A stretch of DNA of 64,000 bases, taken from sequence record NZ_CP072388.1; one strand, given 5' to 3'. The translations under genes were made by a program, and so were the position numbers. Under the pieces are notes generated by a model. The model had not been told where the DNA came from. It saw only the letters and a program-made list of their open reading frames with translations, and ran no database searches. Each line of letters opens with the position of its first letter. The first letter of the stretch is position 1. The stretch is from a plasmid. This document shows positions 13,975 through 57,438 of this stretch, in pieces.

Positions 13975-13984
13975 GGTCCTCGCC

Positions 13985-39022: not shown

Positions 39023-39085
39023 CCGCGTTCTATCGATCGTGTTGGTGGATGCGGGCGGGCGAAGGTCCCGCCCCGACGAGACGGG

Positions 39086-40069: not shown

Positions 40070-40080
40070 CCGGCGCCTCG

Positions 40081-41055: not shown

Positions 41056-41963
41056 TGGCCCTGCACACCCCCGCCGTGGCGACCCAGCAAGCTCGCCTGG
41101 CCACCGGTAACCGGTCCAAGGAACGCACCCCGACCTCGGTGCTCTTCCTGGCCCTGCTGTGGATCTCGCTGTTCGTCGCGTTCGCCACCCTCGTCGCGCT
41201 GATCGTCACGACGATCGCCCAGGGCGCCGACCGGCTCGACTCGCGCCTGTTCACCGAGTACCCGTCCTCGCGGCCCGAGGAGGCCGGGGCGCGCCCCGCG
41301 ATCCTGGGGTCGCTGTGGGTGATCGGCACCACCGCCGCCCTCGCGATCCCGCTCGGGGTCGCCGCGGCCGTGCACCTGGAGGAGTTCGCCGACCGGCGCC
41401 ACTGGTTCAACCGGTTCATCGAGCTCAACATCCAGAACCTGTCGGCCATCCCGTCGATCATCTACGGCATGCTCGCGATCGGGACCCTGGCCTTGATCGG
41501 CGTCGGGAACAAGAACATCGTGATCGGCGGCGCGCTCGCCCTGGCGCTGCTCATCCTGCCCGTCATCATCATCGCCACCCGTGAGGCGTTGCGCGCCGTC
41601 CCGCGCGAGCTGCGCCACGGGTCGCTCGCTCTAGGCGCGACCGAGCTGCAGACCACCTGGCGCATCACGTTGCCCGCCGCGGTCCCGGGCATCGCCACCG
41701 GCACGATCCTGGCCCTGTCCCGCGCGCTCGGCGAGGCCGCGCCGCTGCTGCTGCTGGGTGCCCTGGTGTTCATCTCCTTCGACCCCAACGGGCTGCTCTC
41801 GGGCTTCACCACCATGCCGATCCAGATCTATGGCTGGACCAACGCACCCCAGGCCGGGTTCCACGAGCTCGCGGCCGCGACCTCGATCCTGCTCGTGGGG
41901 ATCCTGCTGGCCATGAACGCGCTGGCCATCATCATCCGCAACCGCTACCAGCGCCGCTGGTGA
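41055..41963 (+). CDS. pstA: Phosphate ABC transporter permease
   Basis: ATG overlaps the pstC stop by 1 nt. Typical PstA topology. Confidence 0.85.
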
Positions 41964-41986
41964 GACCACCCGAGGACCACCCCACC

Positions 41987-42868
41987 ATGACCACCACCGG
42001 CACCTCCGCGAAGGCCACCATGTCCTCCAGCACCCAGATCTCCACTCGCCCCGCCCACAGCGAGCACCGCGAGATCCCTGCCGAGCCCAACCCGGTCCTG
42101 CAGTGCGAGGACGTCGACGTCTACTACGGCTCCTTCCGCGCCGTGCGCGACGTGTCCCTGGCGTTCGGGCACAACGAGATCACGGCCCTCATCGGCCCGT
42201 CCGGGTGCGGGAAGTCCACCATCCTGCGCTCCTTGAACCGGATGAACGACCTGGTCGAAGGCGCGCGCGTGACCGGGTCCGTACGGTACTGGGGCCAGGA
42301 CATGTATGGCGCCGGCGTGGACCCGATCGAGGTGCGCCGCCGCATCGGGATGGTCTTTCAAAAGCCCAACCCGTTCCCGAAGTCGATCTACGACAACATC
42401 GCCTACGGCCCGAGAGTCACGGGGATGAAGGTCGCGTCGATGGACGACCACGTCGAGCAGGCACTGACCCGCGCCGCCCTGTGGGACGAGGTCAAGGACA
42501 AGCTCAAGCAGTCCGCCTACGGCCTGTCCGGTGGGCAGCAGCAGCGCCTGTGCATCGCCCGCACGATCGCCGTCGAGCCCGACGTGATCCTCATGGACGA
42601 GCCGTGCGCGTCGCTCGACCCCATCGCGACCATGCGCATCGAGACCCTCATGACCGAGCTGCGCGACCTGTACACGATCGTCATCGTCACCCACAACATG
42701 CAGCAGGCGGCCCGCGTCGCCGACCGCACCGCGTTCTTCACCGCCGCCGTCGACGAGACCACCGGTGACCGCACGGGCGAGCTCGTCGAGTTCGACCACA
42801 CCGCGAAGATCTTCGAGAACCCGGCCGACCAGCGCACCGAGGACTACATCACCGGACGCTTCGGCTGA
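41987..42868 (+). CDS. pstB: Phosphate ABC transporter ATP-binding protein
   Basis: GPSGCGKST Walker [14 protein letters not shown] signature, VYYGSFRAV. Confidence 0.9.
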
Positions 42869-42888
42869 CCACCCACCAGGAGCCGACG

Positions 42889-43644
42889 ATGACCGTCACC
42901 CTTCCCCCGCGCGGTCCCAGCACCCAGCGCGAGGCCACCGCGCTCGGGCCCCAGACCGTGCGCGCCGTCCTCGTCGACCCCACGTTCGACCCTCGCGAAG
43001 GGCTCGTGACCGCGATGCGCGAGCAAGGCATCACGCTCGAGCCCGTGAGCGACCCGCTGCGCGGCCTCGCCCGCGCCTCGCTCGCACACACCCGCGCCGT
43101 CGTGGTCAGCGCAGCGGTGGCCGACCCGATGCTCAGCGCCTTCGTCGCCGTGGTGCGCGACGAGCTCGACCTGCCCGTCCTGCTCGCCCACCGGGCCGGC
43201 GACGCCGACCGGCTCGGCGGCGCGGTGCTCGCCGGGGCCCGGCCCGTCGTCGACCAGCCCTACCAGCCCGCGCGCATGGCCGCGACCCTGCTCGGCCTCG
43301 CCGGGAACCAGGAACCAGGGATCGTGCGCGTCGGATCGCTCGAGCTCGACCCGGACGCCTACGACGCACGCCTGCACGGACGCGGCATCGACCTGAGCAC
43401 GCTGGAGTTCGAGGTCCTGCACGAGCTGGCGACCCACCCCGACCACGTGATCCCGCGCGAGCGGTTCACCCACCGCTACTGGCCGCGTTCACCCGACCCG
43501 GACGGAACCCTGGCCGCGGTCATCTCCCGCCTGCGCCGCAAGCTCGACGCCCATCACCTCGCCGGCGCCATCCACACCGTGCGCGGGATCGGCTTTCGCC
43601 TGGAGAGCGCCGTCCTCGCCGCATACTCACACCCAAACCCATAG
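42889..43644 (+). CDS. Atypical OmpR/PhoB-type response-regulator-like protein
   Basis: C-terminal winged helix (LSTLEFEVLHELATHPDHVIPRERF...GIGFRLE). N-terminal receiver-like domain lacks a clear phospho-acceptor Asp. Occupies the usual phoU position. Confidence 0.55.
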   Translation: MTVTLPPRGPSTQREATALGPQTVRAVLVDPTFDPREGLVTAMREQGITLEPVSDPLRGLARASLAHTRAVVVSAAVADPMLSAFVAVVRDELDLPVLLAHRAGDADRLGGAVLAGARPVVDQPYQPARMAATLLGLAGNQEPGIVRVGSLELDPDAYDARLHGRGIDLSTLEFEVLHELATHPDHVIPRERFTHRYWPRSPDPDGTLAAVISRLRRKLDAHHLAGAIHTVRGIGFRLESAVLAAYSHPNP

Positions 43645-43665
43645 ACGTCGATCTATCATGATGGG

Positions 43666-44079
43666 GTGGCGAGCCGACTCCTCGACCGGGACGTGAGCGC
43701 GACCGTCGCCGTCGCGGCGTCGGCCGAGCAGACGTGGCGTGCGCTCCTGGTCGTCCTGGGGATCGACGCCGAGGTACCGGGTGTGCCGGCGGCCTACGGG
43801 GCCATGGCCGGGCGTGTGCGCGACGCTGTGCCGGGGGACGGCTTGGTGGTGCGTGGCCGTCTGGGCGCGCGCACGTACGAGTTCTCCGCCCATCTCGTCG
43901 CCCGCGGTGTGTGGTGCGACCTGACGGTGGACGCAGCCCCGGACGACCTTGTCGGGGCAGTAGAGGGCGGGCGCTGGCGGCACCACCTGGCCCGGCGTCG
44001 GGTCCGGCAGCTCGTGCGAGATCTGGTGACCGATGTCGCGCGCACGGCGGGTAGCGGCGCCGGTCCGGTCTCGCGCTGA
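43666..44079 (+). CDS. Possible SRPBCC/START-fold small protein
   Basis: Weak. Composition is coding-like with no diagnostic motif. Confidence 0.25.
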   Translation: MASRLLDRDVSATVAVAASAEQTWRALLVVLGIDAEVPGVPAAYGAMAGRVRDAVPGDGLVVRGRLGARTYEFSAHLVARGVWCDLTVDAAPDDLVGAVEGGRWRHHLARRRVRQLVRDLVTDVARTAGSGAGPVSR

Positions 44080-44093
44080 GAGGCTGCCCGGCT

Positions 44094-45005
44094 TCAGGGG
44101 GTGATCTCGCGTACGAGGTCGTGCACGCGCGCGGTGATGTCGTCGACGATGCGCACGACGTCCTGAAGTGGGCGACCGGAAGGGTCCTCGACGGTCCAGT
44201 CGACGTAGCGCCGGCCAGGGAAGACCGGGCAGGCGTCGCCGCAGCCCATGGTGACCACGACGCCTGAGGCGCGCACGACCTCGTCGGTGAGGGGGCGGGG
44301 AAACTCGGTCAGCGCGTCGAGGCCGCGTCGCGCGAGCTCGGTGCGCACGACGGGGTCGATCGAGGCGGCGGGCACCGACCCGGCAGTGCGCACGCGCACC
44401 TGGTCGCCGGCGATCGAGCGCAGCACCGCGGCGGCGATCTGGGACCTGCCGGCGTTGCGCACGCACACGAACAGCACGTCCTGGCGCGGCGCGAGGCCGT
44501 GCCGGTCGAGGGTGAGGGCGGCGAGCCGGTCGGCGGCGAAGCGCGCGGTGAGCGCGGGCAGGTGGCGGCGCACGGTGGCGCGGGCGGCGAGCAGGTCGTA
44601 GCTGTCGGTGACGAACCGGGCGACGGTCTCGGGCGCGAGGACGTCGGTGTAGGTGGCGCTCAGGTCGGCGGTGATCCGTCGCAGGAGGCGGTCGTGGTCC
44701 CCGGGTGGGACGTGCGCGGCGCCGGACCGGTCCGGCGCGCCGATCGCGGCGCCGCCGAATCGGGCCAGGGCGTCCGGGGTCGGGCGGTATCGCGCGTCGG
44801 GGCCGTGTCCGACGCGGACCAGGACACCGACGTCGCTCATGGCCTGCAGGTGCGCGCCGACGGCGTCGAGGGCGCCACCGGGTCCGGCCAGGTCTCGGGC
44901 GCGGGGCTGTCCACTCGGGTCGGTGATGATCAGGGCCAGGAGCCGCAACCTGTCGGGATCGGCCATCGTGGCGGCCTGGGCGGCGCGCAGGTCGTCCGGG
45001 CTCAT
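44094..45005 (-). CDS. ArsR-HTH / LMW-PTP arsenate reductase fusion protein (ArsRC)
   Basis: N-terminal LRLLALI wHTH. C-terminal VLFVCVRNAGRSQ...TMGCGDACP (ArsC/LMW-PTP). Confidence 0.75.
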   Translation of the reverse strand: MSPDDLRAAQAATMADPDRLRLLALIITDPSGQPRARDLAGPGGALDAVGAHLQAMSDVGVLVRVGHGPDARYRPTPDALARFGGAAIGAPDRSGAAHVPPGDHDRLLRRITADLSATYTDVLAPETVARFVTDSYDLLAARATVRRHLPALTARFAADRLAALTLDRHGLAPRQDVLFVCVRNAGRSQIAAAVLRSIAGDQVRVRTAGSVPAASIDPVVRTELARRGLDALTEFPRPLTDEVVRASGVVVTMGCGDACPVFPGRRYVDWTVEDPSGRPLQDVVRIVDDITARVHDLVREITP

Positions 45006-45024
45006 CGGGGCACGCCCCGCCCGG

Positions 45025-45381
45025 TCAGCGCAGCAGGTCCGCGATCGCGTGCAGACGGACGGGGACGATGGAGTACCAGACCTCGCGTCCCACGGGGTCG
45101 CGGGTGACGATGCCCGCCTCGGTCATCACCTTCAGGTGGTGGGACACGGTGGGCTGGCGCAGGCCGAGCGCGCGGGTCAGGTCCGCGACGCGGGCACGGG
45201 CATCGGCGCTGTGGTGGATCAGGCTCAGCAGCTGTAGGCGGGTGGGGTCGGAGACGACCCGCAGCAGCGTGGCGGTGTCCTCGGCCTGCTCGCGGCTCAG
45301 CGTCGTGCGCAGGGCGGGCCCCGGCGCGCGTTCGGCCCGCCCCTGCAGGGGCGGGGACGACTCGCTTGCCGGGGCGCTCAC
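45025..45381 (-). CDS. arsR: ArsR-family regulator
   Basis: LLRVVSDPTRLQLLSLI...LGLRQPTVSHHLKVM. Confidence 0.8.
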   Translation of the reverse strand: MSAPASESSPPLQGRAERAPGPALRTTLSREQAEDTATLLRVVSDPTRLQLLSLIHHSADARARVADLTRALGLRQPTVSHHLKVMTEAGIVTRDPVGREVWYSIVPVRLHAIADLLR

Positions 45382-45403
45382 CCATCGAGGATAGCCGTCC
45401 GCG

Positions 45404-45844
45404 TCAGGCGGCCGGGGTGGGCGCGACCGGCGTGACGCCGAGCTCGCCCAGCAGGGTCAAGACACGGCCGCGGATCTCGTCGCGAATGGGGCGCACAGAC
45501 TCGATGCCCTGCCCTGCCGGGTCGGCGAGCTCCCAGTCCTCGTAGCGCTTGCCGGGGAAGATCGGGCAGGCGTCGCCGCAGCCCATGGTGATGACGACGT
45601 CGGACGCCTGGACGGCCTCGGTGGTGAGGACCTTGGGCTGCTCGGCGCGGATGTCGATGCCCTCTTCGAGCATGGCCTCGACGGCGACGGGGTTGATCTG
45701 GTCCGCCGGGGCCGAGCCGGCGGAGCGGACCTCGACGGCGCCGCCGGACAGTGCGCGAAGGTAGCCGGCGGCCATCTGGGATCGGCCGGCGTTGTGGACG
45801 CAGACGAACAGGGCTGACGGCTTCGCGGTGGTGGTGTCGGTCAT
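45404..45844 (-). CDS. arsC: Arsenate reductase, LMW-PTP type
   Basis: ALFVCVHNAGRSQMA...ITMGCGDACP. RBS aggaga. Confidence 0.85.
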   Translation of the reverse strand: MTDTTTAKPSALFVCVHNAGRSQMAAGYLRALSGGAVEVRSAGSAPADQINPVAVEAMLEEGIDIRAEQPKVLTTEAVQASDVVITMGCGDACPIFPGKRYEDWELADPAGQGIESVRPIRDEIRGRVLTLLGELGVTPVAPTPAA

Positions 45845-45870
45845 GGCGTTCTCCTGGTTGCTGGTGGATC

Positions 45871-46881
45871 TCAGGCGATGGTCAGGGTCAGGTCGGGCAG
45901 CAGGTCGGCGAGCAGGCCCCGTACTCGCTCGTCGAGGTCGTCGCGGATCGCGGCGACCCCTGCGGGGGAGGCCAGGGCGGGGTCGCCGACGAGCCAGTCC
46001 TCGTACCTCTTGCCGGGCAGCACGGGGCAGACGTCGCCGCAGCCCATGGTGATGACGACATCGGCGGCGCGGACGGCGTCGTCGGTCAGGGGCTTGGGGA
46101 AGGCTTCGTCGTCGTCGGTGCCGAGCTCGGTCAGGGCCTCGAGCACCCCGTCGTGGATGTCGGCGGCAGGCGTGGACCCGGCGGAGCGGACCACGACGCG
46201 GTTCCCGGCGTAGTGCTGCAGCAGGGCGGCGGCGAGCTGGGAGCGTCCGGCGTTGGCGACGCAGACGAACAGCACTTGCGGTCGGGCGTCGCCGGAGCGG
46301 GTGAGGTCGGCCAGTCTCTGGCGGGCGAACCGTGCGGTGAGCGGCACCAGGTGGGCCGAGACCTTCGCCGAGCGGGCCAGGTCGGTGTAGGACTCGCGGA
46401 CCACGCGTTGCACGACGTCGAACCGGACGTCGGGAAACGCTCCGGCGAGGTCCTCGGCGAGGTGGTCGAGCGCCGGGTCGACGTCGTCCAGCCCCGCCAG
46501 GACGGCCGCACCGTGTGCAGAGCCCAGCGCGGCCGGGGCGAACGAGTCGAGCAGCGTCGTCACCGCGGCCTTGTAACCGCCGGTGATGCGGTACCAGACC
46601 CAGGTGCCGCGCCGTTCGGAGGTCAGCACGCCGACGTCGCGCAGCACCTTGAGGTGGTGCGACACGGTGGGCTGTGACACGTCGGTGAGGGCGGCGAGGT
46701 CGCACACGCACGCCTCCCCGGCGGGTGCGGTCGCGATGAAGGACAGCATCCGTAGCCGCAGCGGCTCGGCGAGGGCCTTGAGCGTGGTGGCGACGGCGCC
46801 GGCGACCTCGGTGCCGATCGCGTGGGACTCGATCTGCGGGGCGCAGTCCGGGTCCGTGACAGTCAAGGGTGTGGTGGTCAT
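45871..46881 (-). CDS. ArsR-HTH / unknown middle domain / LMW-PTP arsenate reductase fusion (ArsRC, second copy)
   Basis: CVCDL...PTVSHHLKVL wHTH. ~100 aa linker domain. VLFVCVANAGRSQ...TMGCGDVCP. Confidence 0.75.
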   Translation of the reverse strand: MTTTPLTVTDPDCAPQIESHAIGTEVAGAVATTLKALAEPLRLRMLSFIATAPAGEACVCDLAALTDVSQPTVSHHLKVLRDVGVLTSERRGTWVWYRITGGYKAAVTTLLDSFAPAALGSAHGAAVLAGLDDVDPALDHLAEDLAGAFPDVRFDVVQRVVRESYTDLARSAKVSAHLVPLTARFARQRLADLTRSGDARPQVLFVCVANAGRSQLAAALLQHYAGNRVVVRSAGSTPAADIHDGVLEALTELGTDDDEAFPKPLTDDAVRAADVVITMGCGDVCPVLPGKRYEDWLVGDPALASPAGVAAIRDDLDERVRGLLADLLPDLTLTIA

Positions 46882-47984
46882 GACCTCACCTCTTCCAGCT
46901 CGGGTGTTCGAGTCGTGGGGGCGTAGGGGTCGACGGCGAACCAGCGGCGCGCGAGCCACAGGGAGACGTAGACGAGGCCGACGAGGACGGGGACCTCGAT
47001 GAGCGGGCCGACGACGCCGGCCAGGGCCTGACCTGACGTGGCGCCGAACGTGCCGATGGCGACGGCGATCGCGAGCTCGAAGTTGTTGCCCGCAGCGGTG
47101 AAGGCGAGCGTCGTGGAGCGTGCGTAACCGAGCGCGAGCATCTTGCCGACGACGATGCCGATGCCCCACATGGCGGCGAAGTACACCAGCAGCGGCAGCG
47201 CGATGCGGGCCACGTCGAGCGGGTGGGAGGCGACGGCCTCGCCCTGCAGGGCGAAGAGCAGCACGATCGTGAACAGCAGTCCGTACAGCGCCCACGGCCC
47301 GACCTTCGGCAGGAACCGGTCCTCGTACCAGGTGCGGCCCTTGGCGCGTTCGCCGACCAGGCGGGAGGCGAACCCGGCGGCCAGCGGGACACCGAGGAAG
47401 ACGAGGACGTTGAGCGCGATCTGCCCGACCGAGACGTCGAGGCCCTGGGTGTCCAGACCGAGCCATCCGGGCAGCACGGTGAGGTAGAAGTAGCCGAGCA
47501 GCGAGAACGCGACGACCTGGAAGGCGGAGTTGATCGCGACCAGCACCGTGGCCGCCTCCCGATCCCCGCACGCGAGGTCGTTCCAGATCACGACCATCGC
47601 GATGCAGCGGGCCAGGCCGACGATGATCAGCCCTGTGCGGTACTCGGGCAGGTCGGGCAGGAAGGCCCAGGCAAGGGCGAACATCAGCGCGGGACCGACC
47701 AGCCAGTTCAGTACCAGCGAGGAGACCAGGAGCCTCTTGTCGCCGGTGACCGCGCCGACGCGGTCGTAGCGGACCTTGGCCAGGACCGGGTACATCATGA
47801 CGAGCAGGCCGAGCGCGATCGGGACCGAGATCCCGCCGACCTCCATCGCCGTGAGCACCTCGGACAGGGCGGGGACGAACCGGCCCAGGACGAGACCGGC
47901 GACCATCGCGAGGCCGATCCACAGCGGCAGCCACCGGTCCAGCGTGGACAGGCGCCCGCGCGTGGCGGTCGTGGGGTCGCTCAC
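46878..47984 (-). CDS. acr3: Arsenite efflux transporter ACR3 family
   Basis: Ten TM helices. ACR3 signature stretches (LNWLVGP, ARCIAMV). GTG overlaps the trxA stop. Confidence 0.9.
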   Translation of the reverse strand: MSDPTTATRGRLSTLDRWLPLWIGLAMVAGLVLGRFVPALSEVLTAMEVGGISVPIALGLLVMMYPVLAKVRYDRVGAVTGDKRLLVSSLVLNWLVGPALMFALAWAFLPDLPEYRTGLIIVGLARCIAMVVIWNDLACGDREAATVLVAINSAFQVVAFSLLGYFYLTVLPGWLGLDTQGLDVSVGQIALNVLVFLGVPLAAGFASRLVGERAKGRTWYEDRFLPKVGPWALYGLLFTIVLLFALQGEAVASHPLDVARIALPLLVYFAAMWGIGIVVGKMLALGYARSTTLAFTAAGNNFELAIAVAIGTFGATSGQALAGVVGPLIEVPVLVGLVYVSLWLARRWFAVDPYAPTTRTPELEEVRS

Positions 47985-48304
47985 GCGAGGACCTCCTCGA
48001 TCTCGGCGACCAGCGCCTGCTTCGGGCGTGCGCCGACGACGGACTTCACCAGCTGGCCGTCGGAGTAGAAGTTCAGCGTCGGGATCGACACGACGCCCGC
48101 CGCCGCCACGGTCTTCGGGTTGGCGTCGGCGTCGAGCTTGGCGATCGTGAGCCTGCCCTCGTACTCCTGCGCGAGCTCGGCCAGGATCGGGGCGACCTGG
48201 CGGCACGGGCCGCACCACGTGGCCCAGATATCCACCAGCACAGGCACTTCGGAGGCCAGGACCACCTCGTCGAAGGTGTCGTCGGTGACGGTCACGGTGC
48301 TCAT
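47981..48304 (-). CDS. trxA: Thioredoxin
   Basis: WATWCGPC active site, 107 aa. Confidence 0.9.
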
Positions 48305-49323
48305 CGGATCTCCTCCAGCGCCAGGGGCAGCTCGTCGGGGTTCGGGGTCTCGGGCGTGCCGGCCAGGTTCGCAAGGCCGGCGGCGTCGGCGAGCTCGGTG
48401 AGGTAGGCCTGGGCGTCCAGGGCGGCGGAGGCGCCGGTCCCGGCGGCCGTGATGGCCTGCCGGTAGGTGTGGTCGACCACGTCGCCGGCGGCGAACACGC
48501 CCGACAGGTTGGTGCGGGTGGAGCGGCCCTGGACCAGGATGTAACCGTCGTCGTCGAGGTCGACCTGGCCCTTGACCAGGTCGGTGCGCGGCTCGTGGCC
48601 GACGGCGACGAACAGGCCCGTCGCGGGCAGCTCGCGCTCGGCGCCGGTCACGGTGTCGCGCAGCGTCAGGCCCTCGACCTTGTTCTCTCCGCCGATCGCG
48701 GCGACCTCGCTGTTCCAGGCGAACTCGATCTTCGGGTCGTTCAGGGCGCGGTCGGCCATGATCTTCGACGCACGCAGCTCCCCACGGCGGTGCACGACGG
48801 TGACCTTGGACGCGAACCGGGTGAGGAACGTGGCCTCCTCCATCGCGGAGTCCCCGCCGCCGACGACCGCGATGTGCTGGTCGCGGAAGAAGAACCCGTC
48901 GCAGGTGCCGCACCAGGACACCCCGCGCCCGGACAGCCGCTCCTCCTCGGGCAGGCCGAGCTTGCGGTAGGCGGACCCGGTGGTCAGGATCACCGCCCGG
49001 GCCCGGTAGGTGTCGCCGCTGCCGGTGTGGAGCGTCTTGACCGGGCGGTCCAGCTCGAGGGACGTCACGTCGTCCCACACGATGCGCGCCCCGAACTTCT
49101 CGGCCTGGGCCCGCATGGCGTCCATGAGCTCAGGGCCTTGGATGCCGTCCGCGAACCCGGGGAAGTTCTCCACCTCGGTCGTGGTCATCAGCGCGCCACC
49201 GGCGGTGACCGAGCCGGCGACCACCACCGGCGCCAGGCCGGCACGGGCGGCGTAGATCGCCGCGGTGTACCCGGCGGGGCCCGACCCCACGATCACGATC
49301 TCCTGAACCTCTTGCATCGACAT
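48301..49323 (-). CDS. trxB: Thioredoxin-disulfide reductase
   Basis: [16 protein letters not shown] redox centre, GGGDSA NADPH motif. Confidence 0.9.
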
Positions 49324-49343
49324 GCCTCTATGTTGACACCGGT

Positions 49344-49386
49344 CGATGCAGCGCGCAAGGTGGATATCGATGAACGTCGATGCAAC
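49344..49386. promoter_or_regulatory. Candidate ArsR operator repeats (tcgatgca ... atatcgatgaacgtcgatgca) in the trxB/DUF2180 divergent region
   Basis: Shares the TATCGATG motif with 36952 and 52025. Confidence 0.35.
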
Positions 49387-49398
49387 AGGAAGTGGATC

Positions 49399-49656
49399 AT
49401 GAACTGTTACGAGCACGCGCAGGAAGGCCGCGAGACGGTCGCCGTGGGGGTCTGCCCGCGCTGTGGCGCCGCGGTCTGCGCCGAGCACGCGGGGGAGTGT
49501 CGGGTCGAGATCGTTCGGAGCAACGGTGTCGGGTCGCCGACCCTCGGGCAGCACCGGGTCGTGTGCTGCGACCGGTGCCGCGCCTCTGGAGCTTGTGCCG
49601 GCGTGTGGCGGGCGGGCGTCGACGGCGCGCGTGAGCCGGCTGGTCGCGGCGTGTAG
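49399..49656 (+). CDS. DUF2180-family zinc-ribbon protein (paralog 2)
   Basis: MNCYEHAQ...[16 protein letters not shown] aggaag. Confidence 0.5.
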
Positions 49657-49705
49657 CGCTCAGTTCACCGTGCTCGGAAGAAGCCCTGGTGGGTCGCCGG
49701 GGCGG

Positions 49706-50926
49706 TCATGCAGCGTTTGGGCGGTGCACCCCGGTCGACAGGGCGATGAGTGCCGCGAGGGCGGCGGACGCGGCAAGGACCGCGAACGTCGCCGGGTAGG
49801 AGCCGGTGGCGCCGGTGAACGCGGCGGCCGCCCAGGGCGCCAGTGCCATCGCGAGCGTGGTGGGGGCGTTGAGGATCCCGAACAAGACGCCGTACGAGCC
49901 CGATCCCCACCGGTCGCTGATCGCGGTGGACTGCAGCAGCGTGAATGCGCCGCGCGCCACGCCGAGGGCGACGGCGGCGGCGATGAGCGCGGTGGCCGGT
50001 CCGTCGAGCAGCCCGACGATGGCGATCGTCAGGGCCGAGGTGCCGAGGAGCGCGCTGGCGCGGACGGGTGGTGTGGTGCGCGCGGCGAGCGATCCGTACG
50101 CGATGCGCCCCAGGAGCTGACCCGCGCCGGACAGGCCGAGCGCCCACGCGGCCGCAGCCGCTGTCAGGCCGCGCCAGGTCAGCATCGGCACCAGATGGAT
50201 GGTGGCGGCGAACATCGCGAACGCGCCCAGCGCGGTGGCGCAGGTCAGGGCGAGGAACGCTCGAGAGCGCGCGATCGTTCGCCACCCGCCTCCGCCGTGT
50301 GCGTGCTGGGCGGTCTCGAGGGGCGGCCAGGGTGCGCGCAGGCCGATTGCGTGCGCGGGGATGGTCGTCAGGGCGAGCAGGACGGCCAGGAAGAGGTAGG
50401 TCTGGCGCCATCCCGCGTGCTGGACCAGGGCGGCGGTCAGGGGCGCGAAGATCGTGCTCGCGAGCCCTGCCACCAGGGTCAGCACGAGCAGGGCCCGGGT
50501 CCGCGCGGGCCCGTACCAGCGGGTGATCGCGGTGAACGCCGGGGCGTAGAGCACCATCGACTGGGCGACGCCGACCATGACCCAGGCGGCGAGGAACCAA
50601 CCCAGGGACGGGGCAAGCGCGACGGCGATCACGGCGACGCTCGCCAGGACGGACCCAGTGGTCATCACCGCCCGGGGACCGTGGTGATCGATGCGTCTGC
50701 CCACGAGCACGCCCGCGCCGGCTGCGACGACCAGGGCCGCGGAAAACGCGGCCGTCGCGCTGGCTGGCGACCAGCCGGTGTCGGCCGTGATGGCCGGCAA
50801 GGCGACCGGGAAGGAGTAGTACAGGACGCCCCACCCCACGACCTGGGTCAGGCACAAGGCCGCGAGGGTGCCGCGTGGGCCGGTGCGCAGACCGGCGTCG
50901 CCTCGGCCCCTCTGCGTGGTGGTCAC
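49706..50926 (-). CDS. MFS transporter (ars-associated, ArsK/ArsJ-like candidate)
   Basis: 12 TM helices, MFS. Embedded in the ars cluster. Confidence 0.7.
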   Translation of the reverse strand: MTTTQRGRGDAGLRTGPRGTLAALCLTQVVGWGVLYYSFPVALPAITADTGWSPASATAAFSAALVVAAGAGVLVGRRIDHHGPRAVMTTGSVLASVAVIAVALAPSLGWFLAAWVMVGVAQSMVLYAPAFTAITRWYGPARTRALLVLTLVAGLASTIFAPLTAALVQHAGWRQTYLFLAVLLALTTIPAHAIGLRAPWPPLETAQHAHGGGGWRTIARSRAFLALTCATALGAFAMFAATIHLVPMLTWRGLTAAAAAWALGLSGAGQLLGRIAYGSLAARTTPPVRASALLGTSALTIAIVGLLDGPATALIAAAVALGVARGAFTLLQSTAISDRWGSGSYGVLFGILNAPTTLAMALAPWAAAAFTGATGSYPATFAVLAASAALAALIALSTGVHRPNAA

Positions 50927-52005
50927 GACCGAGTCAGCGTACGCACGGTGCGTGCGTGCGCGCTGACCGCCGCGGCGACGTGGGCGGCGTCGCGGTGCAC
51001 GCCGCGCAGCGTGTTCGAGGCGAACGAGCGCTGCAGCTCCAGCCCCACGAACCCCAGTCCCGGCCGGGCGAGCGAGATCCCGCCGCGCTGGCGCGGCATA
51101 CCGCGCTCGTCCAGCAAGGCCAGGTCACCGAGGTAGTCCAGCGCGGGCCGGTACCCGGTGGCCAGCACGAGGGCGTTGACGCGTTCGCGTGCCCCGTCTG
51201 CCCACACCACCCCGTCCTGGTCGACCGCGCTGAACATCGCGCGCGAGTCCACGGTGCCGTTCGCCAGCGCCTCGCGATAGCTGCCGGCGTCCAGGACCAG
51301 CGGCCCACGCACCACGCGTCGAAGCACCGCCGGGGGGAAGCGGTCGAAGCCGGTGACGCGGAACCAGAAGTGCACGTCCCGCCCCAGCGGGCGCTGGGTC
51401 GCGAACACGACGGGCTGGCGCGTCGCGAGGGTCACGTCGCTCACTTGCGCGAGCTCGTGCGCGATCTGCACCCCCGAGTTCCCGCCACCGACGACCACGA
51501 CGCGCTCCCCGGCGAACGACGAGGGATCGCAGTACTGGGCCGCGTGCACCACCCGGCCCGTGAAGTGCTCCAGCCCAGCAACGCTCGGACGCACAGGGTT
51601 GGCGAACGACCCCGTCGCCGCGATCACCCCGCTCGCGTCGAGCTCGACCCCGTCGCCCGTGCGCACCACGAACCCGGTCCCCGCCGGCTCGACCCCCACC
51701 ACCCGGGTTCCCGTCCGCACCTCGACCCCGAGGTGGTCGGCGTACCGGTGCAGGTGCTCGACCACCTCGTCCCGCGCCGGGTACCGGTCCGGGTCCCCCC
51801 CGAAGCCGAACCCGGGGAAGCCGCTGTACCGGGCCGGGGAGAACAGCCGCAGGCTGTCGTAGTACGACGGCCACGACCCCACCGGTCGGTCGCCCGCCTC
51901 CAGCACGAGCGGCTCGAGACCTCGCTCGCGCACGGCCCTGGCCGCGGCCAGGCCCGACTGGCCGGCACCGCTGATGATCACGGGGAGCGTCGTTGACGTC
52001 GTCAC
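50923..52005 (-). CDS. FAD/NAD(P)-binding oxidoreductase (ArsO-like flavin monooxygenase family)
   Basis: IISGAGQSGLAAARAV and VVGGGNSGVQIA dinucleotide motifs. Divergent from arsR. Confidence 0.7.
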   Translation of the reverse strand: MTTSTTLPVIISGAGQSGLAAARAVRERGLEPLVLEAGDRPVGSWPSYYDSLRLFSPARYSGFPGFGFGGDPDRYPARDEVVEHLHRYADHLGVEVRTGTRVVGVEPAGTGFVVRTGDGVELDASGVIAATGSFANPVRPSVAGLEHFTGRVVHAAQYCDPSSFAGERVVVVGGGNSGVQIAHELAQVSDVTLATRQPVVFATQRPLGRDVHFWFRVTGFDRFPPAVLRRVVRGPLVLDAGSYREALANGTVDSRAMFSAVDQDGVVWADGARERVNALVLATGYRPALDYLGDLALLDERGMPRQRGGISLARPGLGFVGLELQRSFASNTLRGVHRDAAHVAAAVSAHARTVRTLTRS

Positions 52006-52015
52006 ATCCGTAACG

Positions 52016-52063
52016 TATCGATGATTCGCAATATGTCAATACGACGATGGATCGAGATACGCT
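52016..52063. promoter_or_regulatory. Candidate ArsR operator (cgtatcgatg ... cgatggatcgagatacg) in the divergent intergenic region
   Basis: GTATCGATG plus an inverted GATACG, 6-bp arms. Confidence 0.35.
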
Positions 52064-52069
52064 CCAGGG

Positions 52070-52399
52070 ATGAGCACGCCGACAAGCCGCCCAGCGGTCG
52101 TGGAAGCTGCGCCGCTCGCGCTGGCCGAGGCGACGCACGACTTTCTCAGCGCGTTGGCGAGCCCCACACGCCAGCGTGTCCTGCTGCTGTTCGCGCGCGG
52201 CGGCGAGCTCGCGGTCGGGGAGGTGGCCGAACGTGCAGGCATCAGCCAGCCCACTGCATCCCAGCACCTGCAGATCCTGCGCCGTGGTGGCATTGTGACC
52301 TCGCGCCGCCAAGGCCGGGTCGTGCTCTACCGCGCCGACCGCGACGGCGTGGCGCGTGCGCTGAGCGACCTGCAGGCCTATCTCCAAGCGTGCTGCTGA
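52070..52399 (+). CDS. arsR: ArsR-family regulator with C-terminal Cys pair
   Basis: LASPTRQRVLLLF...GISQPTASQHLQIL. Ends QACC. Confidence 0.8.
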   Translation: MSTPTSRPAVVEAAPLALAEATHDFLSALASPTRQRVLLLFARGGELAVGEVAERAGISQPTASQHLQILRRGGIVTSRRQGRVVLYRADRDGVARALSDLQAYLQACC

Positions 52400-52426
52400 G
52401 CACCTGGAGGTCGTCGCGCCGCTCGC

Positions 52427-54955
52427 TCAGCCGTCTGGGTCCGAGCTCGCACGTTCCGCCCTGATGGCTGAGGGCGGCCCCGTAGGCGAGAGCTGGGCGA
52501 CCTCCTGCCTACGGGTTCGCAGGTGCCTGAGACTCTCTTCCAGGGCCGCAACCTCTCCGAGCCAGACTCGCTCGCGCGCCTCTCGCAGCCGGGCTTCGGC
52601 GTTCACGGTCATCTCGTCGAGGCGGCCGGCCTGTGCGGGGTCGACCTTGAGGAAGCGGCATCGGGTGCAGGCGTGCTCGTGCACGCACGGGGTGCCGTAC
52701 GGGCGGCGGCAGTCGCCGAGGGCGACCTTGCGCAGCAGGAAGTGTTGCTCGAACTCGTTCCACTCGTCGGGGGTGGCCGTGCGCAGCTCTTCCTCGGGGC
52801 GGGTGTGCCGGCGTCGCTCGACGAAGGCGTGGTGGGCCTGGATGACGTGCTCGGGGAAGACGGCTGTGTAGCCGCGGGTCGTGTCGAGGTTCAGATGCCC
52901 CAGGAGCGTGGAGACGATGTGCAGCGGGAGGCCTGCGCCGACGAGGTCGGTGGCGAACAGGCGTCTGAAGTCGTGCGGAGTGAACCGTACGGGGGTCTCG
53001 CCGTCGTGGATCCCTGCTCGGTCGGCGACCTGGTGCAGGAGCGTGCGCACGTACTGGGCGGAGAGCACGCTCTGCCGGGAGCCGATCCTGCGGGCGAACA
53101 GGTGGGGGAGCGGGTCGCTGAACACCTTCTCGTTCGGGTCGTACCGGACCGACAGGGGGACGCTCGGGCTGCCGCCGCGTGCGCGGCGTTGGACCTCGAC
53201 AAGGACCTTGACCAGGTCGGGGCTCATCGGGACGAGGCGTTCGGCGTCGGTCTTCGACGGGACGATGTGCAGCAGCGGCACGATGGTGTTGGTGGTCGGC
53301 GCGACGTAGTGCCGCAGGGACAGCTGCGTGAGCTCGAGGAGCTCTTCGATCCGCACTCCCGTCTCGCGCAACGACTCGACCACGGCCCATGCCCAGAAGC
53401 TGTCGGCCTCCAGGCGAGAGATGCACACCAGGCCGCGTTGCGCCGGTGGGATGCGGGCGTGCTCGGCGATCTCGACGATCCGGGCCCAGACCTGGTTGCG
53501 CGCAGCTCGGTTCGAGTGGAGGGGCGGGTCGTGGCGTTCGTAGGTGATGCCATCGACGGTGAACCGCTCGCCGTGACCGGCCGTGACGGCTGCGGCCAGC
53601 AGCCGGCTCCCGTCCTCTCGTAGCGCGTGGGCGGCGGCGGTGAACCGTGGAAGGTGCGGGGTGAGTGTCCGGGTACGTGCTTGCATGCGCGAGCGTCGTT
53701 GACGGTTGGCCTTCGACGCGCTCCGGGACTCGTGTCGTGGGACGGGGCAGGGCGCGACCCAGTAGGCCCAGCGTTCGGGCTCCTCGTGGGACCACTCGGC
53801 CAGGTCGCGGTAGAGCGCGCGTACCGAGAAGAACACCGACGCCACGTCGCGACGCGGGTGTCCGTCAAGAGTCGTGGCGAGCCGCTCACGCCACCGAACA
53901 GCGACCGCCGGAGCCAGACGCAAGTCGGCCTGATCCGGATTCAGGGCGAGGACCTGTCCCCAGAAGAGGCGCACCAGCCGATACGACAGGCCTTCCAACG
54001 ACCCGTAGTCCAGGCTCGCGCGCAGCTCGCCGAGGTAGTCGACCAGCAGGTCCAGAACCCCTGAGTGCGGGAGGCCGTACCGGGCGACGAGGGTCTGGAC
54101 GGAGTGCTGGCGAGAGTTCCCGGCTGCCGCCCAGGCGGCCCGTAGCGTCGGCGGTTCACCGGCGAGGGGCCCCAGCGCGACCAGGAGCTCCCAGGCCAGG
54201 TGCTCCTTGTTGTGCCGCTGGGAGGTACGCACGACGTCGGCGTAGGCGAGCAGATCGTCGCCCGTGAGCCGTCCCAGGCGCTTGCCGGTGCGGATCAGGA
54301 CTCGCGCCAGGCAGGTCTCGGCGTTGCGGCGCGCGAGCTCGGGCGCGTGCTCATAGGCGGACAGTGCCCGTAGCCGGACCATGGCGTCGGGTTCGGCGGT
54401 GTCGAGGAACCGGGCTGACGGGGCGCGCCGGTAGTGCGCGGCTCGCAGCAGCCAGGAGTAGGAGGGCCGCACCGTGCGCGCCTCGATGAGCGACATCACG
54501 GCGATCGAGACGAGCTTCCTGTGCACGCCGGTCTGGAGAGCGACGGCATCGATGCCGCCGTTCGGTGCGGCGTCCAAGCCGCTGGAGATCCACCGTTCCT
54601 CCCACGTCGATCCCGGGTGCTGGGCGAGCCAGGTCAGCACCCTGCGTACGGCACGGTCGCGGGCACGCTGAGCTTTCGGGAGCGGCTGTGAACGGCCGGA
54701 CAGGTAGGACTCGACCCAGGTGCAGGTTGCCTCCACATCGAGGGTCTGCACGTGCGCGAGCTCGTGGTCGGGCTCTCGCAGTGGCGGCAGTAGGGCGGTG
54801 TCGTAGGCGGGCCGACCGCGCGTCCTGCCGTCCTTGGAGTGCATCGGGTCCGGTGCAACGGCCGCACGAAGGACCCGGGTGCGCCGTCTCGTCTCGGCTG
54901 CCTGTGCGCGCGAGGGCAACCTCGGGTCGAGCGCCACCTCGCCGGTGCCGCTCAC
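52427..54955 (-). CDS. Large tyrosine recombinase (Tn554 TnpB-like / phage-integrase family, 842 aa)
   Basis: C-terminal catalytic domain with R...HDFRRLFATDLVGAGLPLHIVSTLLGHLNLDTTRGY (His-x-x-Arg, Tyr). Long N-terminal extension. Confidence 0.75.
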   Translation of the reverse strand: MSGTGEVALDPRLPSRAQAAETRRRTRVLRAAVAPDPMHSKDGRTRGRPAYDTALLPPLREPDHELAHVQTLDVEATCTWVESYLSGRSQPLPKAQRARDRAVRRVLTWLAQHPGSTWEERWISSGLDAAPNGGIDAVALQTGVHRKLVSIAVMSLIEARTVRPSYSWLLRAAHYRRAPSARFLDTAEPDAMVRLRALSAYEHAPELARRNAETCLARVLIRTGKRLGRLTGDDLLAYADVVRTSQRHNKEHLAWELLVALGPLAGEPPTLRAAWAAAGNSRQHSVQTLVARYGLPHSGVLDLLVDYLGELRASLDYGSLEGLSYRLVRLFWGQVLALNPDQADLRLAPAVAVRWRERLATTLDGHPRRDVASVFFSVRALYRDLAEWSHEEPERWAYWVAPCPVPRHESRSASKANRQRRSRMQARTRTLTPHLPRFTAAAHALREDGSRLLAAAVTAGHGERFTVDGITYERHDPPLHSNRAARNQVWARIVEIAEHARIPPAQRGLVCISRLEADSFWAWAVVESLRETGVRIEELLELTQLSLRHYVAPTTNTIVPLLHIVPSKTDAERLVPMSPDLVKVLVEVQRRARGGSPSVPLSVRYDPNEKVFSDPLPHLFARRIGSRQSVLSAQYVRTLLHQVADRAGIHDGETPVRFTPHDFRRLFATDLVGAGLPLHIVSTLLGHLNLDTTRGYTAVFPEHVIQAHHAFVERRRHTRPEEELRTATPDEWNEFEQHFLLRKVALGDCRRPYGTPCVHEHACTRCRFLKVDPAQAGRLDEMTVNAEARLREARERVWLGEVAALEESLRHLRTRRQEVAQLSPTGPPSAIRAERASSDPDG

Positions 54956-56151
54956 GGTGTCCAGCCGAGCAGCTCACGCACGGCCGCCGCGTCGTAGTCG
55001 GGCTCGACAGCAGCAGGTGGCGGCTTGGGGCGGGAGAAGTGCTCGAGCACCTTGGCCAACACGTCCTCCATCCGGGGCTGGGTGTAAATCGTCGTGGTGA
55101 AGATGTTCACGTGGCGAAGGACCGTCTGGACGTCGACCAAGGTGAATGCCGGGTCGGCCAGCAGGCGCTCGGCGGCCGTGTGCCGCAGGTCGTGCAGCGT
55201 CCAGTTCGATCCGATCCCGCGTTGCGCGCGCGAGAACATGGCCCGAGCCGCGTGGTAGGTCAGTGGTCTGAGTGCCGCCCCGGTGCGCGTCCACCAGACC
55301 CGATCGCCGGGTGCCGCCGGCTGACCTTCGCGCATGTACAGCGCCAGCCACACGAACGCGTCCGGGCTCGCCGGGACGCGTTCTGGCGCGCGGCTTCCCT
55401 TGGTGACGACGGTGATCGTGTGCTCCCCGAAGTCGTAATCTCCGTGCCGCAGCTCCAGCAGCTCGGTTGCCCGCACGCCGCTGGAGAGCCAGAACGACAG
55501 CAGCGCTCGGTCACGGTGACACGTCAGCGCGTCGAAGATCTGGTCGACGTACTCGTCAGGGATGCCGCGCCAGCCGATCCTGGGTACCCGCTGGCGGTAC
55601 GGCGCCCGGGCATGCCGGCGAAATTCACGCATCGGGTCCTGGTGGGCGTTGACGCGGCCCCTGCCGGAACGCTGGGCGGGGACAGGGTTCACCAGCGGAC
55701 CCAGATCCGCGGCGAGCGCAAAGTCGTAGAACCCGGCCAGCACCGAAAGTTGGTGGTTGATCGTGCGCGGAGCAAAGCCTGTCGCGGGACTCGCCCTGCC
55801 GGTAACCATGTTGATCTCGGCGCCACGCTCTCCGCGTCGTAACGCGGTCGCCGTCGGTGCCGCCCGTAAGTACTCCACGAAGGCGCGCACGTCGACACGC
55901 TCAGCACGCTCCCACGCCACGAGCCGCTGGTGGAGGAACCGGAACCACCGGAGCAAGTCGTAGGCGTAGCTGCGGACCGTCGCGGGACTGCAGTCCGACG
56001 CAGACAGATCACGCAGGTACAAGGAGGCTGCTGCGTGCTCGAGATCGGGGAACACGACCCGGAACGGCAGGCCGGAGTCGCACTCCACGACCCGGCCCAC
56101 GGCGCCCGTCACGCGCGACAGCGTCCCATGACGCACACCGCACGTCACCAC
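54952..56151 (-). CDS. Tyrosine recombinase / integrase (Tn554 TnpA-like)
   Basis: HDLRHTAAERLL...LRHVNIFTTTIYT catalytic motifs. Stop overlaps the start of the large recombinase. Confidence 0.8.
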   Translation of the reverse strand: MVTCGVRHGTLSRVTGAVGRVVECDSGLPFRVVFPDLEHAAASLYLRDLSASDCSPATVRSYAYDLLRWFRFLHQRLVAWERAERVDVRAFVEYLRAAPTATALRRGERGAEINMVTGRASPATGFAPRTINHQLSVLAGFYDFALAADLGPLVNPVPAQRSGRGRVNAHQDPMREFRRHARAPYRQRVPRIGWRGIPDEYVDQIFDALTCHRDRALLSFWLSSGVRATELLELRHGDYDFGEHTITVVTKGSRAPERVPASPDAFVWLALYMREGQPAAPGDRVWWTRTGAALRPLTYHAARAMFSRAQRGIGSNWTLHDLRHTAAERLLADPAFTLVDVQTVLRHVNIFTTTIYTQPRMEDVLAKVLEHFSRPKPPPAAVEPDYDAAAVRELLGWTP

Positions 56152-56184
56152 TCGATCTAGGAAGTTCAGTCAACGTGCCGGTGC

Positions 56185-57063
56185 GTGCTCGTGCGCGACG
56201 ACGCGGGCGTGAGCCTGTGGTCGCGGCGTGGCACCGACCTGACGGCGACGTTCCCGGAGATCGCGGCCGCGGCCGCGGAGCAGGTCGCGCCGGGGGCCGT
56301 GCTCGACGGTGAGCTCGTGGTCTGGACCGGGGGCCGGCTCGACTTCGAGGTCTTGCAGGAGCGGATGGGCCGCGGCGCGCGCAGCGCGGCCGCGCACGCC
56401 CGGCGCCGGCCCGCGTCGTTCGCGCTGTTCGACGTCCTCGCCGTCGACGGGCGCGACGTGCGCGGGCGGCCGCTGCGCGAGCGGCGCGCGCTGCTCGAGG
56501 AGGCCGCGACGTCGTGGCGCCCGCCGCTGAACCTGTCCCCGGTGACCGGCGACGTCGACGAGGCGCGCGAGTGGTTCGAGACGTACACGGTGGCCGGTGT
56601 CGAAGGCTTGGTCGTCAAGGGCGCCGGCGAGGCGTACCGGGGCGGGGAGCGGGCCTGGTTGAAGGTCAAGCACCGGGCCACGCTCGACGTCGTGTGCGCC
56701 GCGGTGATCGGCACCATGACCCAGCCGCAACAGGTCGTAGCCGGCCTGCCGATCGACGGCGAGCTGCGCATCGTCGGGCGCACCGGCCCGCTCACGCCGA
56801 CGGCGCGCCGCGCTCTCGCCGTCCACCTGCGACCGCCAGCAGGGGAGCACCCCTGGCCGGCGCAGGTGGCACCGGGTGCGTTCGGCCGGTTCAACGCCGA
56901 CCGCTCCGAACCGGTCACGCTCACGCGGGTCGAGCCGCTCGTCGTCGAGGTCAGCGCCGACGCCGCCTGGTCAGGCCGGTCTTTCCGCCACGCCCTACGT
57001 CTGCTCCGCGCCCGCCCGGACGCCGAGGTCTCCGCCGTGGAACCGCCACGTCGGGGCCAGTGA
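56185..57063 (+). pseudogene. 5'-truncated ATP-dependent DNA ligase (LigC/LigD ligase-domain fragment lacking motif I)
   Basis: Motifs III LDGELVV, IV EGLVVK, V WLKVK present. KxDG adenylation motif absent. In-frame TAG at 56158 immediately upstream. Abuts the recombinase gene start. Confidence 0.6.
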
Positions 57064-57438
57064 TCGACCCTATGGGCTTGCGGCTGGGCCCCGCCCGAGC
57101 GTGCTCGGGCGGGGCCCCGTCGCTACGGCTGTTCGCCGCCGGCTTCCGTGCCGACCGTCGAGCTCTGGCTACCGGTGATGGGGCTCAGGCACTGGGCGAG
57201 GTCCGGCGCCTGGGTGGGGCCGCCGAACCCCAGAAGCGAGAGCGCCAGGAGGACGATCGCGACGTTGCTGTAGGAATCAGCGGGCCGCTGATCAGGGGGG
57301 ATGGACATGGACACCTTCCTTGTAGGAAACGAGGGAGGTGGCCAGCCATGCGAACGCTCGCACGCAGGGAGTGGCCTCGTGGTGTGCAGCGCTCAGCGCG
57401 ACGCTGGCTGTAGTGCCGAGCACTACAGGCAGTGATGG

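Follow-up and report, generated by a model that had tools for sequence, protein, structure and literature searches.

The stretch of plasmid DNA analysed here, called the window throughout, is 64,000 nucleotides (nt) long (sequence record NZ_CP072388.1), derives from the actinobacterium Cellulosimicrobium, and carries two overlapping tyrosine recombinase genes that abut what is annotated as an ATP-dependent DNA ligase gene. We conclude, with a probability of about 0.88, that positions 52427-56178 are the recombinase end of an actinobacterial Tn554-related, site-specific transposon inserted in motif I, the adenylation motif, of a LigC-type ligase gene. An earlier reading made without any database search (the sequence-only reading) had likened the recombinases to TnpA and TnpB of Tn554 and had seen in them the mark of an insertion that split the ligase; both proposals hold up, the former through homology to authentic Tn554-family proteins, the latter through recurrence of the same junction codon and orientation in about 29 loci and the presence of the other ligase half in 20. 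What that reading had missed is that the junction falls inside the catalytic motif, which is the specific target of the family.

A ligase gene interrupted at its adenylation motif

All ATP-dependent ligases require the lysine of motif I that becomes adenylated, and it is this part of the protein that the window gene lacks. The ligase open reading frame (ORF) proper (56185-57063, plus strand, 292 amino acids (aa)) first aligns with the Pfam model PF01068 at position 37 of its 204 and with the NCBIfam model NF006078 at position 39 of its 350, the latter match being below cut-off; by Pfam, NCBIfam and alignment alike, the KxDG motif with its lysine is absent, and motifs III-V are still readable in a frame that stays open to the natural stop. 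Both the missing motif and the in-frame TAG upstream (56158-56160) had been recognised from the sequence-only reading. Full-length homologues, 320-340 aa long, have ...EPKWDG(F/Y)R-C/A-... just before the point where similarity to the window ORF starts, and where 12 of them read KWDGFRC the window has a stop codon followed by EVQSTC-RCVLVRDD (here and below, the hyphen marks the point of insertion). Homology to ligases begins at the Arg codon of the KxDGxR motif, CGG at 56179, and the residues EVQSTC are, judging from the alignment, encoded by foreign DNA, namely that of the element. Because the full-length homologues carry EPKWDG(F/Y)R right before the start of homology, the comparison indicates that the truncation is real and not a natural start; the relatives do not begin at this position but are full-length proteins with motif I, one of them encoded beside a homologous downstream flank.

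The annotations of this gene need revision. A protein 100% identical to the 292-aa ORF (P0001) is entered at NCBI as "MULTISPECIES: ATP-dependent DNA ligase [Cellulosimicrobium]", and the annotated start of P0005, a 309-aa "ligase" of Cellulosimicrobium funkei with the same EVQSTC peptide, falls inside element DNA; both entries are probably errors for a pseudogene. The C. funkei locus of P0005 (L001) has the same gene order as the window: ars genes, arsR, large recombinase, small recombinase and ligase remnant. Measured against C. funkei, the ratio of nonsynonymous to synonymous substitution rates (dN/dS) of the remnant is 0.38 (dS 0.63), compared with 0.21 (dS 0.60) for a reference pair of intact ligases, values that point to relaxed constraint during only part of its divergence, and the counterpart of the remnant in a further Cellulosimicrobium-lineage copy, L086, is frameshifted. 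Just past the ligase stop, at 57088-57121, lies a perfect GC-rich inverted repeat, GGGCCCCGCCCGAGC...GCTCGGGCGGGGCCCC, close to where homology with the C. funkei locus stops (~57038-57076); it is likely to be both the ligase terminator and a boundary between modules of a mosaic backbone.

The insertion site was defined with a comparison set of 80 loci from GTDB species genomes (of ~525 candidate loci), found via the large recombinase. In the clade whose large recombinase is at least 50% identical to that of the window, the small recombinase gene always precedes the large one, and in 27 GTDB loci a ligase fragment adjoins the small gene divergently, nearly always beginning at reference residue 42, the motif-I Arg. 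Together with L001 from C. funkei and L086, this makes about 29 loci sharing the junction codon, KxDG(F/Y)-R, and the orientation. The DNA of this junction reads (G/A)A(A/G)GTTCAGTCAAC, four lineage-variable bases and then the ligase codon CGN. The conserved 11-mer GTTCAGTCAAC stands in the same place in 30 or more loci, always 4 nt before CGN, and occurs once in the window (56164-56174), where the variable bases are GTGC (56175-56178), as in L001 and L086; other loci have TAGC, TAGA or ATGC. The last base of the element is hence 56178, an exact end fixed by two 99.9% identical elements, in L024 and L039, that are described below.

The sequence-only reading had suggested seeking the ligase 5' half in relatives, and 20 loci supply it, so defining the site and the other boundary: beyond the large gene, on the expected strand, lies a ligase 5' fragment that ends ...AAG TGG GAC GGN T(T/A)C and is directly followed by CTTCACTGAACTNGTCAA. 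The distal end of complete relatives is CTTCACTGAAC, abutting the 5' fragment that ends ...KWDG(F/Y). Where both ligase halves are present they are of matching subtype and rejoin without a lost or duplicated codon, and the complete elements, such as those of Mycolicibacterium sp. CR10 (L024) and Kribbella sp. CA-294648 (L033), measure 5.4-12.4 kb. Three ligase subtypes are targeted, the "VALARAVEQ...KWDG" type (that of the window), the mycobacterial "LPVMPPV..PMLAK...KWDGFR" LigC type and a KHDG type, and the genes hit share as little as 27-32% protein identity. These junctions identify the motif-I codons of the ligase as the specific target of the clade to which the window copy belongs.

The two ends have a subterminal inverted match of only 7-9 bp and no long terminal inverted repeats. 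Joined on paper, they give AAGTTCAGT-CAACNNNNCTTC-ACTGAACTT, that is, 9-bp inverted arms around a 12-bp spacer, and this layout, as reconstructed from the two end sequences, would be that expected of a tyrosine-recombinase core site. If they act as in Tn554 and as tyrosine recombinases generally do, TnpA and TnpB would jointly excise the element as a circle whose joined ends form the inverted-arm site AAGTTCAGT-N12-ACTGAACTT; this site would then recombine with conserved DNA encoding KxDG(F/Y)R, strand exchange taking place at the boundary between the F/Y and Arg codons. In the window, the element entered a Cellulosimicrobium LigC-type ligase gene in the fixed orientation and without target duplication, between the codon after "DG" and the motif-I Arg codon (K-x-D-G-F/Y, then R), and stripped the 3' part of the ligase of its catalytic lysine and promoter, leaving the pseudogene at 56179-57063. 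On this account arsR, and possibly the ars and pst genes beyond it, would be cargo, and a copy that shows neither a CTTCACTGAAC... end nor a ligase 5' fragment in the window would be either truncated and stranded or unusually large. In the literature searched, whose coverage is incomplete, we came across no mention of ligase-motif targeting, of the ends or of a ligase carried by these elements. The main features are collected in Table 1.

Table 1. Features of the window that bear on the proposed element (window coordinates).
Feature	Position	Strand	Remarks
tnpB-like large tyrosine recombinase gene	52427-54955	-	842 aa; PF00589 at residues 516-702
tnpA-like small tyrosine recombinase gene	54952-56151	-	longest ORF 399 aa; PF02899 and PF00589
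TnpA-proximal element terminus	56158-56178	+	TAG GAA GTTCAGTCAAC GTGC
LigC-type ATP-dependent DNA ligase, 3' remnant	56179-57063	+	motif-I Arg codon to natural stop; pseudogene
arsR-family regulator gene	52070-52399	+	PF01022, PF12840; convergent with tnpB, 27 nt from its stop
pstSCAB, regulator and ars block	38278-52005		Pfam; possible cargo or later-joined DNA
HTH gene and Zn-finger ORF, candidate original upstream flank of the ligase	13985-14703	+	homology to L083

The recombinase pair and its kin

The two recombinase ORFs are as the sequence-only reading had described them, sharing the four nucleotides GTGA (small gene ...ACA CCG TGA, large gene GTG AGC). A multiple alignment of homologues places the probable start of tnpA at the GTG at 56112, giving a protein of 386 aa and leaving 66 nt between this start and the end of the element. 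Besides Phage_integrase (PF00589), Pfam recognises in the small recombinase a SAM-like core-binding domain, and its R, K, HxxR, H and Y residues, together with an N-terminal beta-strand segment, are kept in 20 homologues and in TnpA of the Tn554 family. The large recombinase, in which Pfam finds only PF00589, consists of a helical N-terminal part of ~500 aa, the catalytic domain, a C-terminal Cys/His motif and then a coiled coil; the catalytic R535, K568, H661, R664, H687 and Y696 (R, K, HxxR, H, Y) and the Cys/His residues C749, C757, H759, H761, C763 and C766 are invariant in 16 homologues. Its AlphaFold model (pLDDT 72) has an all-helical N-terminal segment of ~500 residues, for which a structure search gave no match, and the structural relatives of the model are Cre/Xer folds only, confined to the C-terminal half. 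Actinobacterial homologues of this protein, ~830 aa long, number in the hundreds. Compared with C. funkei, dN/dS is 0.10 for tnpA and 0.14 for tnpB.

Members of the Tn554 family (Tn554, Tn558, Tn559) are organised as tnpA (~360 aa), tnpB (~630 aa) and tnpC (DUF6262) and have their attachment site, att554, in radC; transposition of Tn554 needs both TnpA and TnpB and proceeds via a circular form. A Tn554-family element on a Staphylococcus aureus plasmid (L082), with a truncated radC (JAB domain), tnpA of 361 aa, tnpB of 637 aa and a DUF6262 tnpC, served as a direct comparison. The small recombinase of the window is 20% identical to its TnpA over the full length (E=1e-9), and the large one 25% identical to its TnpB (E=6e-14), the latter across the catalytic domain and the GxCRxP...PCxHxxACxxC motif that follows it. 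An N-terminal beta-strand segment marks the TnpA subgroup (PMC8138268), and the small recombinase aligns with this segment. The likeness extends to gene order, the short gene preceding the long one with which it overlaps or abuts, and, for the clade of the window, to site- and orientation-specific insertion in one conserved gene, absence of target duplication, asymmetric ends and resistance cargo; the truncated radC of L082 adjoins tnpA just as the ligase remnant does in the window. The differences are equally plain: identities are only 20-25%, TnpB has 842 rather than 637 aa, the target is a ligase motif and not radC, the split gene is divergent from tnpA in the window and co-directional with it in L082, and many members of the window's clade contain a complete gene of the family that they target. 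No tnpC/DUF6262 gene follows tnpB in the window, where only 27 nt separate it from the arsR stop (52399), and no DUF6262 was found among the scanned cargo ORFs of complete relatives.

A closer match is the actinobacterial class described by Van Houdt et al. (2012, Mob DNA 3:6; PMC3414803), which combines long (Famint41) and short (Famint36) recombinases without TnpC, and in which the long proteins, of 611-828 aa and "abnormally long", have an N-terminal extension of >400 aa without known domain; members include pNOCA01, pRHL2 and SCP1, and ends and integration sites were not determined there. Like the window, this class has adjacent, co-directional short and long recombinase genes, no TnpC and actinobacterial hosts; the large protein of the window, at 842 aa, exceeds the 611-828 aa of that class. 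A tblastn search of pNOCA01 (Nocardioides sp. JS614, NC_008697) gave 38.7% identity over residues 107-810 of the large recombinase (E=1e-114). On architecture, host and this pNOCA01 match, the pair of the window belongs to this class. To that class the clade of the window adds defined ends and a ligase motif-I target, the window copy itself being without a distal end.

Other systems offer looser parallels. The RIT elements of Actinobacteria and Proteobacteria are likewise multi-tyrosine-recombinase modules thought to be mobile, but they have three recombinases of 300-400 aa, whereas the window has two, one of them a TnpB-type giant, and no third nearby. Tn7 at glmS and gene-restoring integrative elements provide a functional analogy only, in using a conserved coding sequence as a safe and ubiquitous attachment site; Tn7 relies on a DDE transposase and leaves glmS intact, its insertions lying downstream of the gene. 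Classical integrases rebuild their target from a short duplicated segment, whereas the clade of the window destroys the target and may supply a whole separate gene: by analogy, the ligase carried by 15 relatives could compensate for the one destroyed.

Movement, cargo and carried ligases among the relatives

That these recombinases belong to a mobile family is attested by the near-identical elements of L024 (Mycolicibacterium sp. CR10) and L039 (a metagenome-assembled genome of Mycobacteriaceae), which sit in two different ligase genes. The two loci agree over 9,274 aligned bases with 99.925% identity, and the element, 9,259 bp long and located at 8663-17921 in both, contains tnpA, tnpB, a ligase gene, ArsR and a P-type ATPase. 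Its flanks are unrelated, the insertion sites being KWDGF-R and KHDGQ-R, respectively, in unrelated ligase genes. Here, as in the reconstructed split ligases, target duplication is absent and no target bases are lost. The pair is best understood as evidence of very recent transposition or transfer.

Metal resistance is frequent among the cargo of complete relatives, which includes ArsR with a Cad transporter (L003), a P-type ATPase with ArsR (L024) and a MerA-like oxidoreductase with a MerR-like ORF (L032); other elements carry ECF sigma factors (L009, L014), PadR with an ABC transporter (L002), an MMPL protein (L022) or a DnaE-like polymerase (L030). Many carry a ligase as well. In 15 loci (L003, L010, L015, L017, L018, L020, L021, L023-L027, L029, L036 and L039) tnpB is followed, at a distance of ~75 nt and in the same orientation, by an intact ligase gene (for example, L024:12408-13481), and in two others one lies on the opposite strand (L004:12478-13473 and L080:16492-17490). 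These element-borne ligases are 63-99% identical among themselves across genera and only 27-51% identical to the ligase split by the element in Mycolicibacterium. In L003, L018 and L026 the corresponding identities are 65%, 79% and 90%, the split gene there being of the element-borne type, so that element-borne ligases may themselves be targets. Some loci have supernumerary ends: two proximal ends (5948 and 8740) with ligase fragments in L013, and two distal ends (8643 and 13873) with near-identical ligase 5' fragments in L008, an arrangement suggesting that a single locus underwent several rounds of insertion and deletion.

A sister clade, whose large protein is ~40% identical to that of the window, adjoins a 5' fragment of istA, a transposase gene of IS21-family elements, in L045, L050, L053, L054, L056, L057, L059, L069 and L077 (for example, L053:7964-8479). 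The fragment always ends ...SGKAVHR, followed by CC(C/T)(G/A)TTGACCGCACTA; in L051 (12951-13475) and L052 (8675-9181) the same fragment is inverted and found beyond the distal side of tnpB, and L034 (7446-7955) has an intact istA for comparison. What the ligase is for the clade of the window, istA seems to be for this sister clade, and homing of each clade to its own conserved gene may thus be a general trait of the recombinase class.

The 15 loci with a ligase after tnpB, the 79-90% identities in L018 and L026 and the arrays in L008 and L013 have led us to a tentative wider view, for which we would give somewhat less than even odds. In it, the elements of the window's clade are homing transposons whose attachment site is that part of LigC/LigD-type ligase genes which encodes the catalytic-lysine motif; the carried ligase could replace the host gene and regenerate the attachment site, so that metal-cargo elements could stack in an integron-like manner at a single ligase locus, and sister clades would behave likewise at genes such as IS21 istA.

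The copy in the window, competing explanations and significance

The cargo of the window copy can be appraised by its divergence from C. funkei, with which positions 38278-57038 are collinear. The dS of arsR is 0.70 (dN/dS 0.12), and those of tnpA and tnpB are 0.53 and 0.45, as against 0.13-0.23 for the genes of ACR3, thioredoxin reductase (TrxR), the major facilitator superfamily (MFS) transporter and the flavin monooxygenase (FMO) in the ars block, which also encodes ArsR/ArsC fusions and thioredoxin; the whole pst/ars block is 93% identical there. Since its dS is in the class of tnpA, tnpB and the remnant (0.45-0.63), arsR travels with the recombinases and is most likely genuine cargo, and ArsR-family regulators are also cargo in the complete relatives L003 and L024. 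The ars/pst block has been exchanged more recently. Divergence changes sharply at 51921-52517, with 93-94% identity on the left and 82-89% on the right; the break falls in the 64 nt that separate arsR from the flavin monooxygenase gene and is a recombination breakpoint inside the arsenic cluster. The proposal from the sequence-only reading that ars, pst and arsR are cargo thus stands for arsR, and is favoured by the ars-type genes found behind tnpB in all three Cellulosimicrobium-lineage copies (window, L001 and L086), but for ars and pst it meets with a different divergence history. L086 is 86% identical to the window over the remnant, tnpA and tnpB, and has trxB directly after tnpB. No near-identical plasmid record was found; only ars/pst genes match other records, at 75-79%.

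As the sequence-only reading had stated, the far end of the element is not defined in the window. A search of both strands of its 64 kb for the distal-end motif (an 18-mer, allowing 3 mismatches, and a 10-mer, allowing 1) gave no hit, nor did the motif turn up in C. funkei L088, 9 kb beyond the synteny break included, or in L089, and tblastn with 11 ligase N-termini returned noise only; the window likewise holds no second ligase and no further recombinase. Three candidates were discarded. Position 38278 is not the far end, the synteny break there being an IS481-type insertion that truncates a C. funkei gene; the K.DG at 16385, sole hit of a six-frame search, lies antisense to an IS5-family transposase gene; and "VALARAVE" at 14788-14856, although it resembles a ligase N-terminus and stands next to DNA homologous to a ligase-upstream flank, is not one, as DUF326/Csp1 proteins align through residues 10-80 of this ORF and its DNA has no similarity to ligase 5' ends.

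The empty site is represented by the intact ligase loci of C. cellulans (L083) and C. funkei (L085), whose downstream flanks match the window at 57.4-61.6 kb. Genes 0.4-1 kb upstream of the L083 ligase match the window at 13985-14703 (HTH, 90% aa identity over 78 aa; next ORF, 55%); since the Zn-finger ORF has a paralogue at 60.2-60.6 kb, this flank homology may reflect a repeated module. Adjacent, at 14776-15018, is a 5'-truncated ORF for a DUF326/Csp1-like copper-storage protein (profile positions 92-150 of 151). This upstream-flank match and the truncated DUF326 gene beside it suggest that ~14.7 kb to 56178 may be inserted DNA with its far end deleted. After the DUF326 ORF comes an IS5-family transposase in two frames (15519-16458, minus strand), and the two mark the left edge of an island of copper, phosphate and arsenic genes. 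Inside this metal island are RF3 (prfC-like GTPase) and RNase J-like genes (29350-31326 and 34800-36497), in the company of part of a UvrD-like helicase gene, of MFS and SulP transporters and of the pst/ars genes. A separate, Tn5053/Tn402-like module occupies 2687-12802, with a TniA-like Mu-type transposase (2687-4438), TniB (4291-5346), a resolvase (6702-7334), MerA (7710-9389), MerB (9313-10110), a second MerA-like oxidoreductase (10340-11704, minus strand) and a second resolvase (12161-12802); its gene content marks it as a mercury transposon beside a resolvase gene.

Several observations weigh against the conclusion that 52427-56178 is the recombinase end of such a transposon, or at least against its simplest form. 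Over 56 kb of the window and 27 kb of C. funkei, neither a distal end nor a ligase 5' fragment was detected, which leaves the completeness of the window copy unproven; the cargo status of the ars/pst block, whose dS lies much below that of tnpA, tnpB and arsR, is uncertain; the strong purifying selection on tnpA and tnpB (dN/dS ~0.1) fits poorly with a long-stranded relic; and no sigma-70-type promoter was detected upstream of tnpA, in a scan that is weak for Actinobacteria. That scan, which covered promoters and terminators around the ligase junction and is uninformative for an actinobacterium, gave no hits at all. The closeness of tnpA to the element end, with an antisense pseudogene just outside, suggests that expression of tnpA and tnpB may depend on the joined-end configuration.

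How much of the element is left can be read in two ways. It may be that only tnpA, tnpB and arsR (~4.1 kb, 52070-56178) are the stranded fragment of an element of 5-12 kb, to which the ars/pst genes were joined later; this sub-variant of the transposon explanation, which concerns the far end only, we consider nearly an even bet. It agrees with the 5.4-12.4 kb of complete relatives, the jump in dS at the arsR/FMO intergenic region (0.70 versus 0.13-0.23), the different gene, trxB, directly after tnpB in L086, and the failure to find a distal end in the window or in L088; the intactness of tnpA and tnpB under purifying selection speaks against it, as do the ars-type genes after tnpB in all three Cellulosimicrobium-lineage copies, which suggest a lasting association and not a chance join. 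Alternatively, everything from ~14.7 kb to 56178, some 41.5 kb of copper, pst and ars genes, could have accumulated inside a giant element; a later deletion would then have taken away its distal end together with ligase codons 1-41 and truncated the DUF326 gene. In favour of this version are the metal-resistance cargo typical of the family and the homology of 13985-14703 to genes upstream of the intact L083 ligase, next to a 5'-truncated DUF326/Csp1-like ORF. Yet the element would be fourfold the size of any complete relative, the island holds an IS5-family element and the housekeeping-like RF3 and RNase J genes, the Zn-finger ORF has its paralogue at 60.2-60.6 kb, and no end sequence survives, all of which makes this version rather unlikely.

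Two further explanations would do away with the transposon. Were the 292-aa ORF a functional, naturally short ligase-like protein, with the recombinases as mere neighbours, its frame open to the natural stop, the readable motifs III-V, a dN/dS of 0.38, below 1, and the NCBI ligase annotation would all be accounted for; we nevertheless hold this to be very improbable, as the motif-I lysine is absent, the upstream frame is closed by TAG and made of element DNA common to unrelated loci, the L086 remnant is frameshifted, and the dN/dS value is explained if most of the divergence predates the insertion. Even less credible, to the point of being negligible, is that the pair is a housekeeping or island-resolution system of XerC/XerD type lying by coincidence beside a ligase gene truncated in some other way. 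XerC, XerD and XerA are indeed the best NCBIfam matches of the two proteins, but with scores of 60-90 bits against curated cut-offs of 220-335, and coincidence is hard to reconcile with base-pair-precise adjacency in ~29 loci from many genera and with a near-identical copy in two different genes.

The element class as such is already published, and the window contains a member with a single end. For Cellulosimicrobium, the analysis explains an NCBI-annotated "ligase" as a pseudogene and shows that the arsenic, phosphate and copper resistance island is bordered by a mobile-element junction. For this poorly characterised Tn554-like actinobacterial class, it fixes the ends exactly, reconstructs the site formed when they are joined and narrows the target to KxDG(F/Y)-R, in three ligase subtypes; the defined ends and target make the elements easy to annotate, and their role in spreading metal-resistance cargo becomes apparent. 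Targeting of the ligase motif, the ends and the carried ligase, if indeed unreported, are the result of interest at the level of the family. They raise the questions of how a tyrosine recombinase pair recognises DNA encoding a protein motif across genes with as little as 27-32% protein identity, and of what accounts for the frequent presence of a ligase gene in the elements. In mycobacteria, ATP-dependent ligases of this type take part in DNA repair, so a transposon that repeatedly inactivates or replaces them may affect repair capacity.

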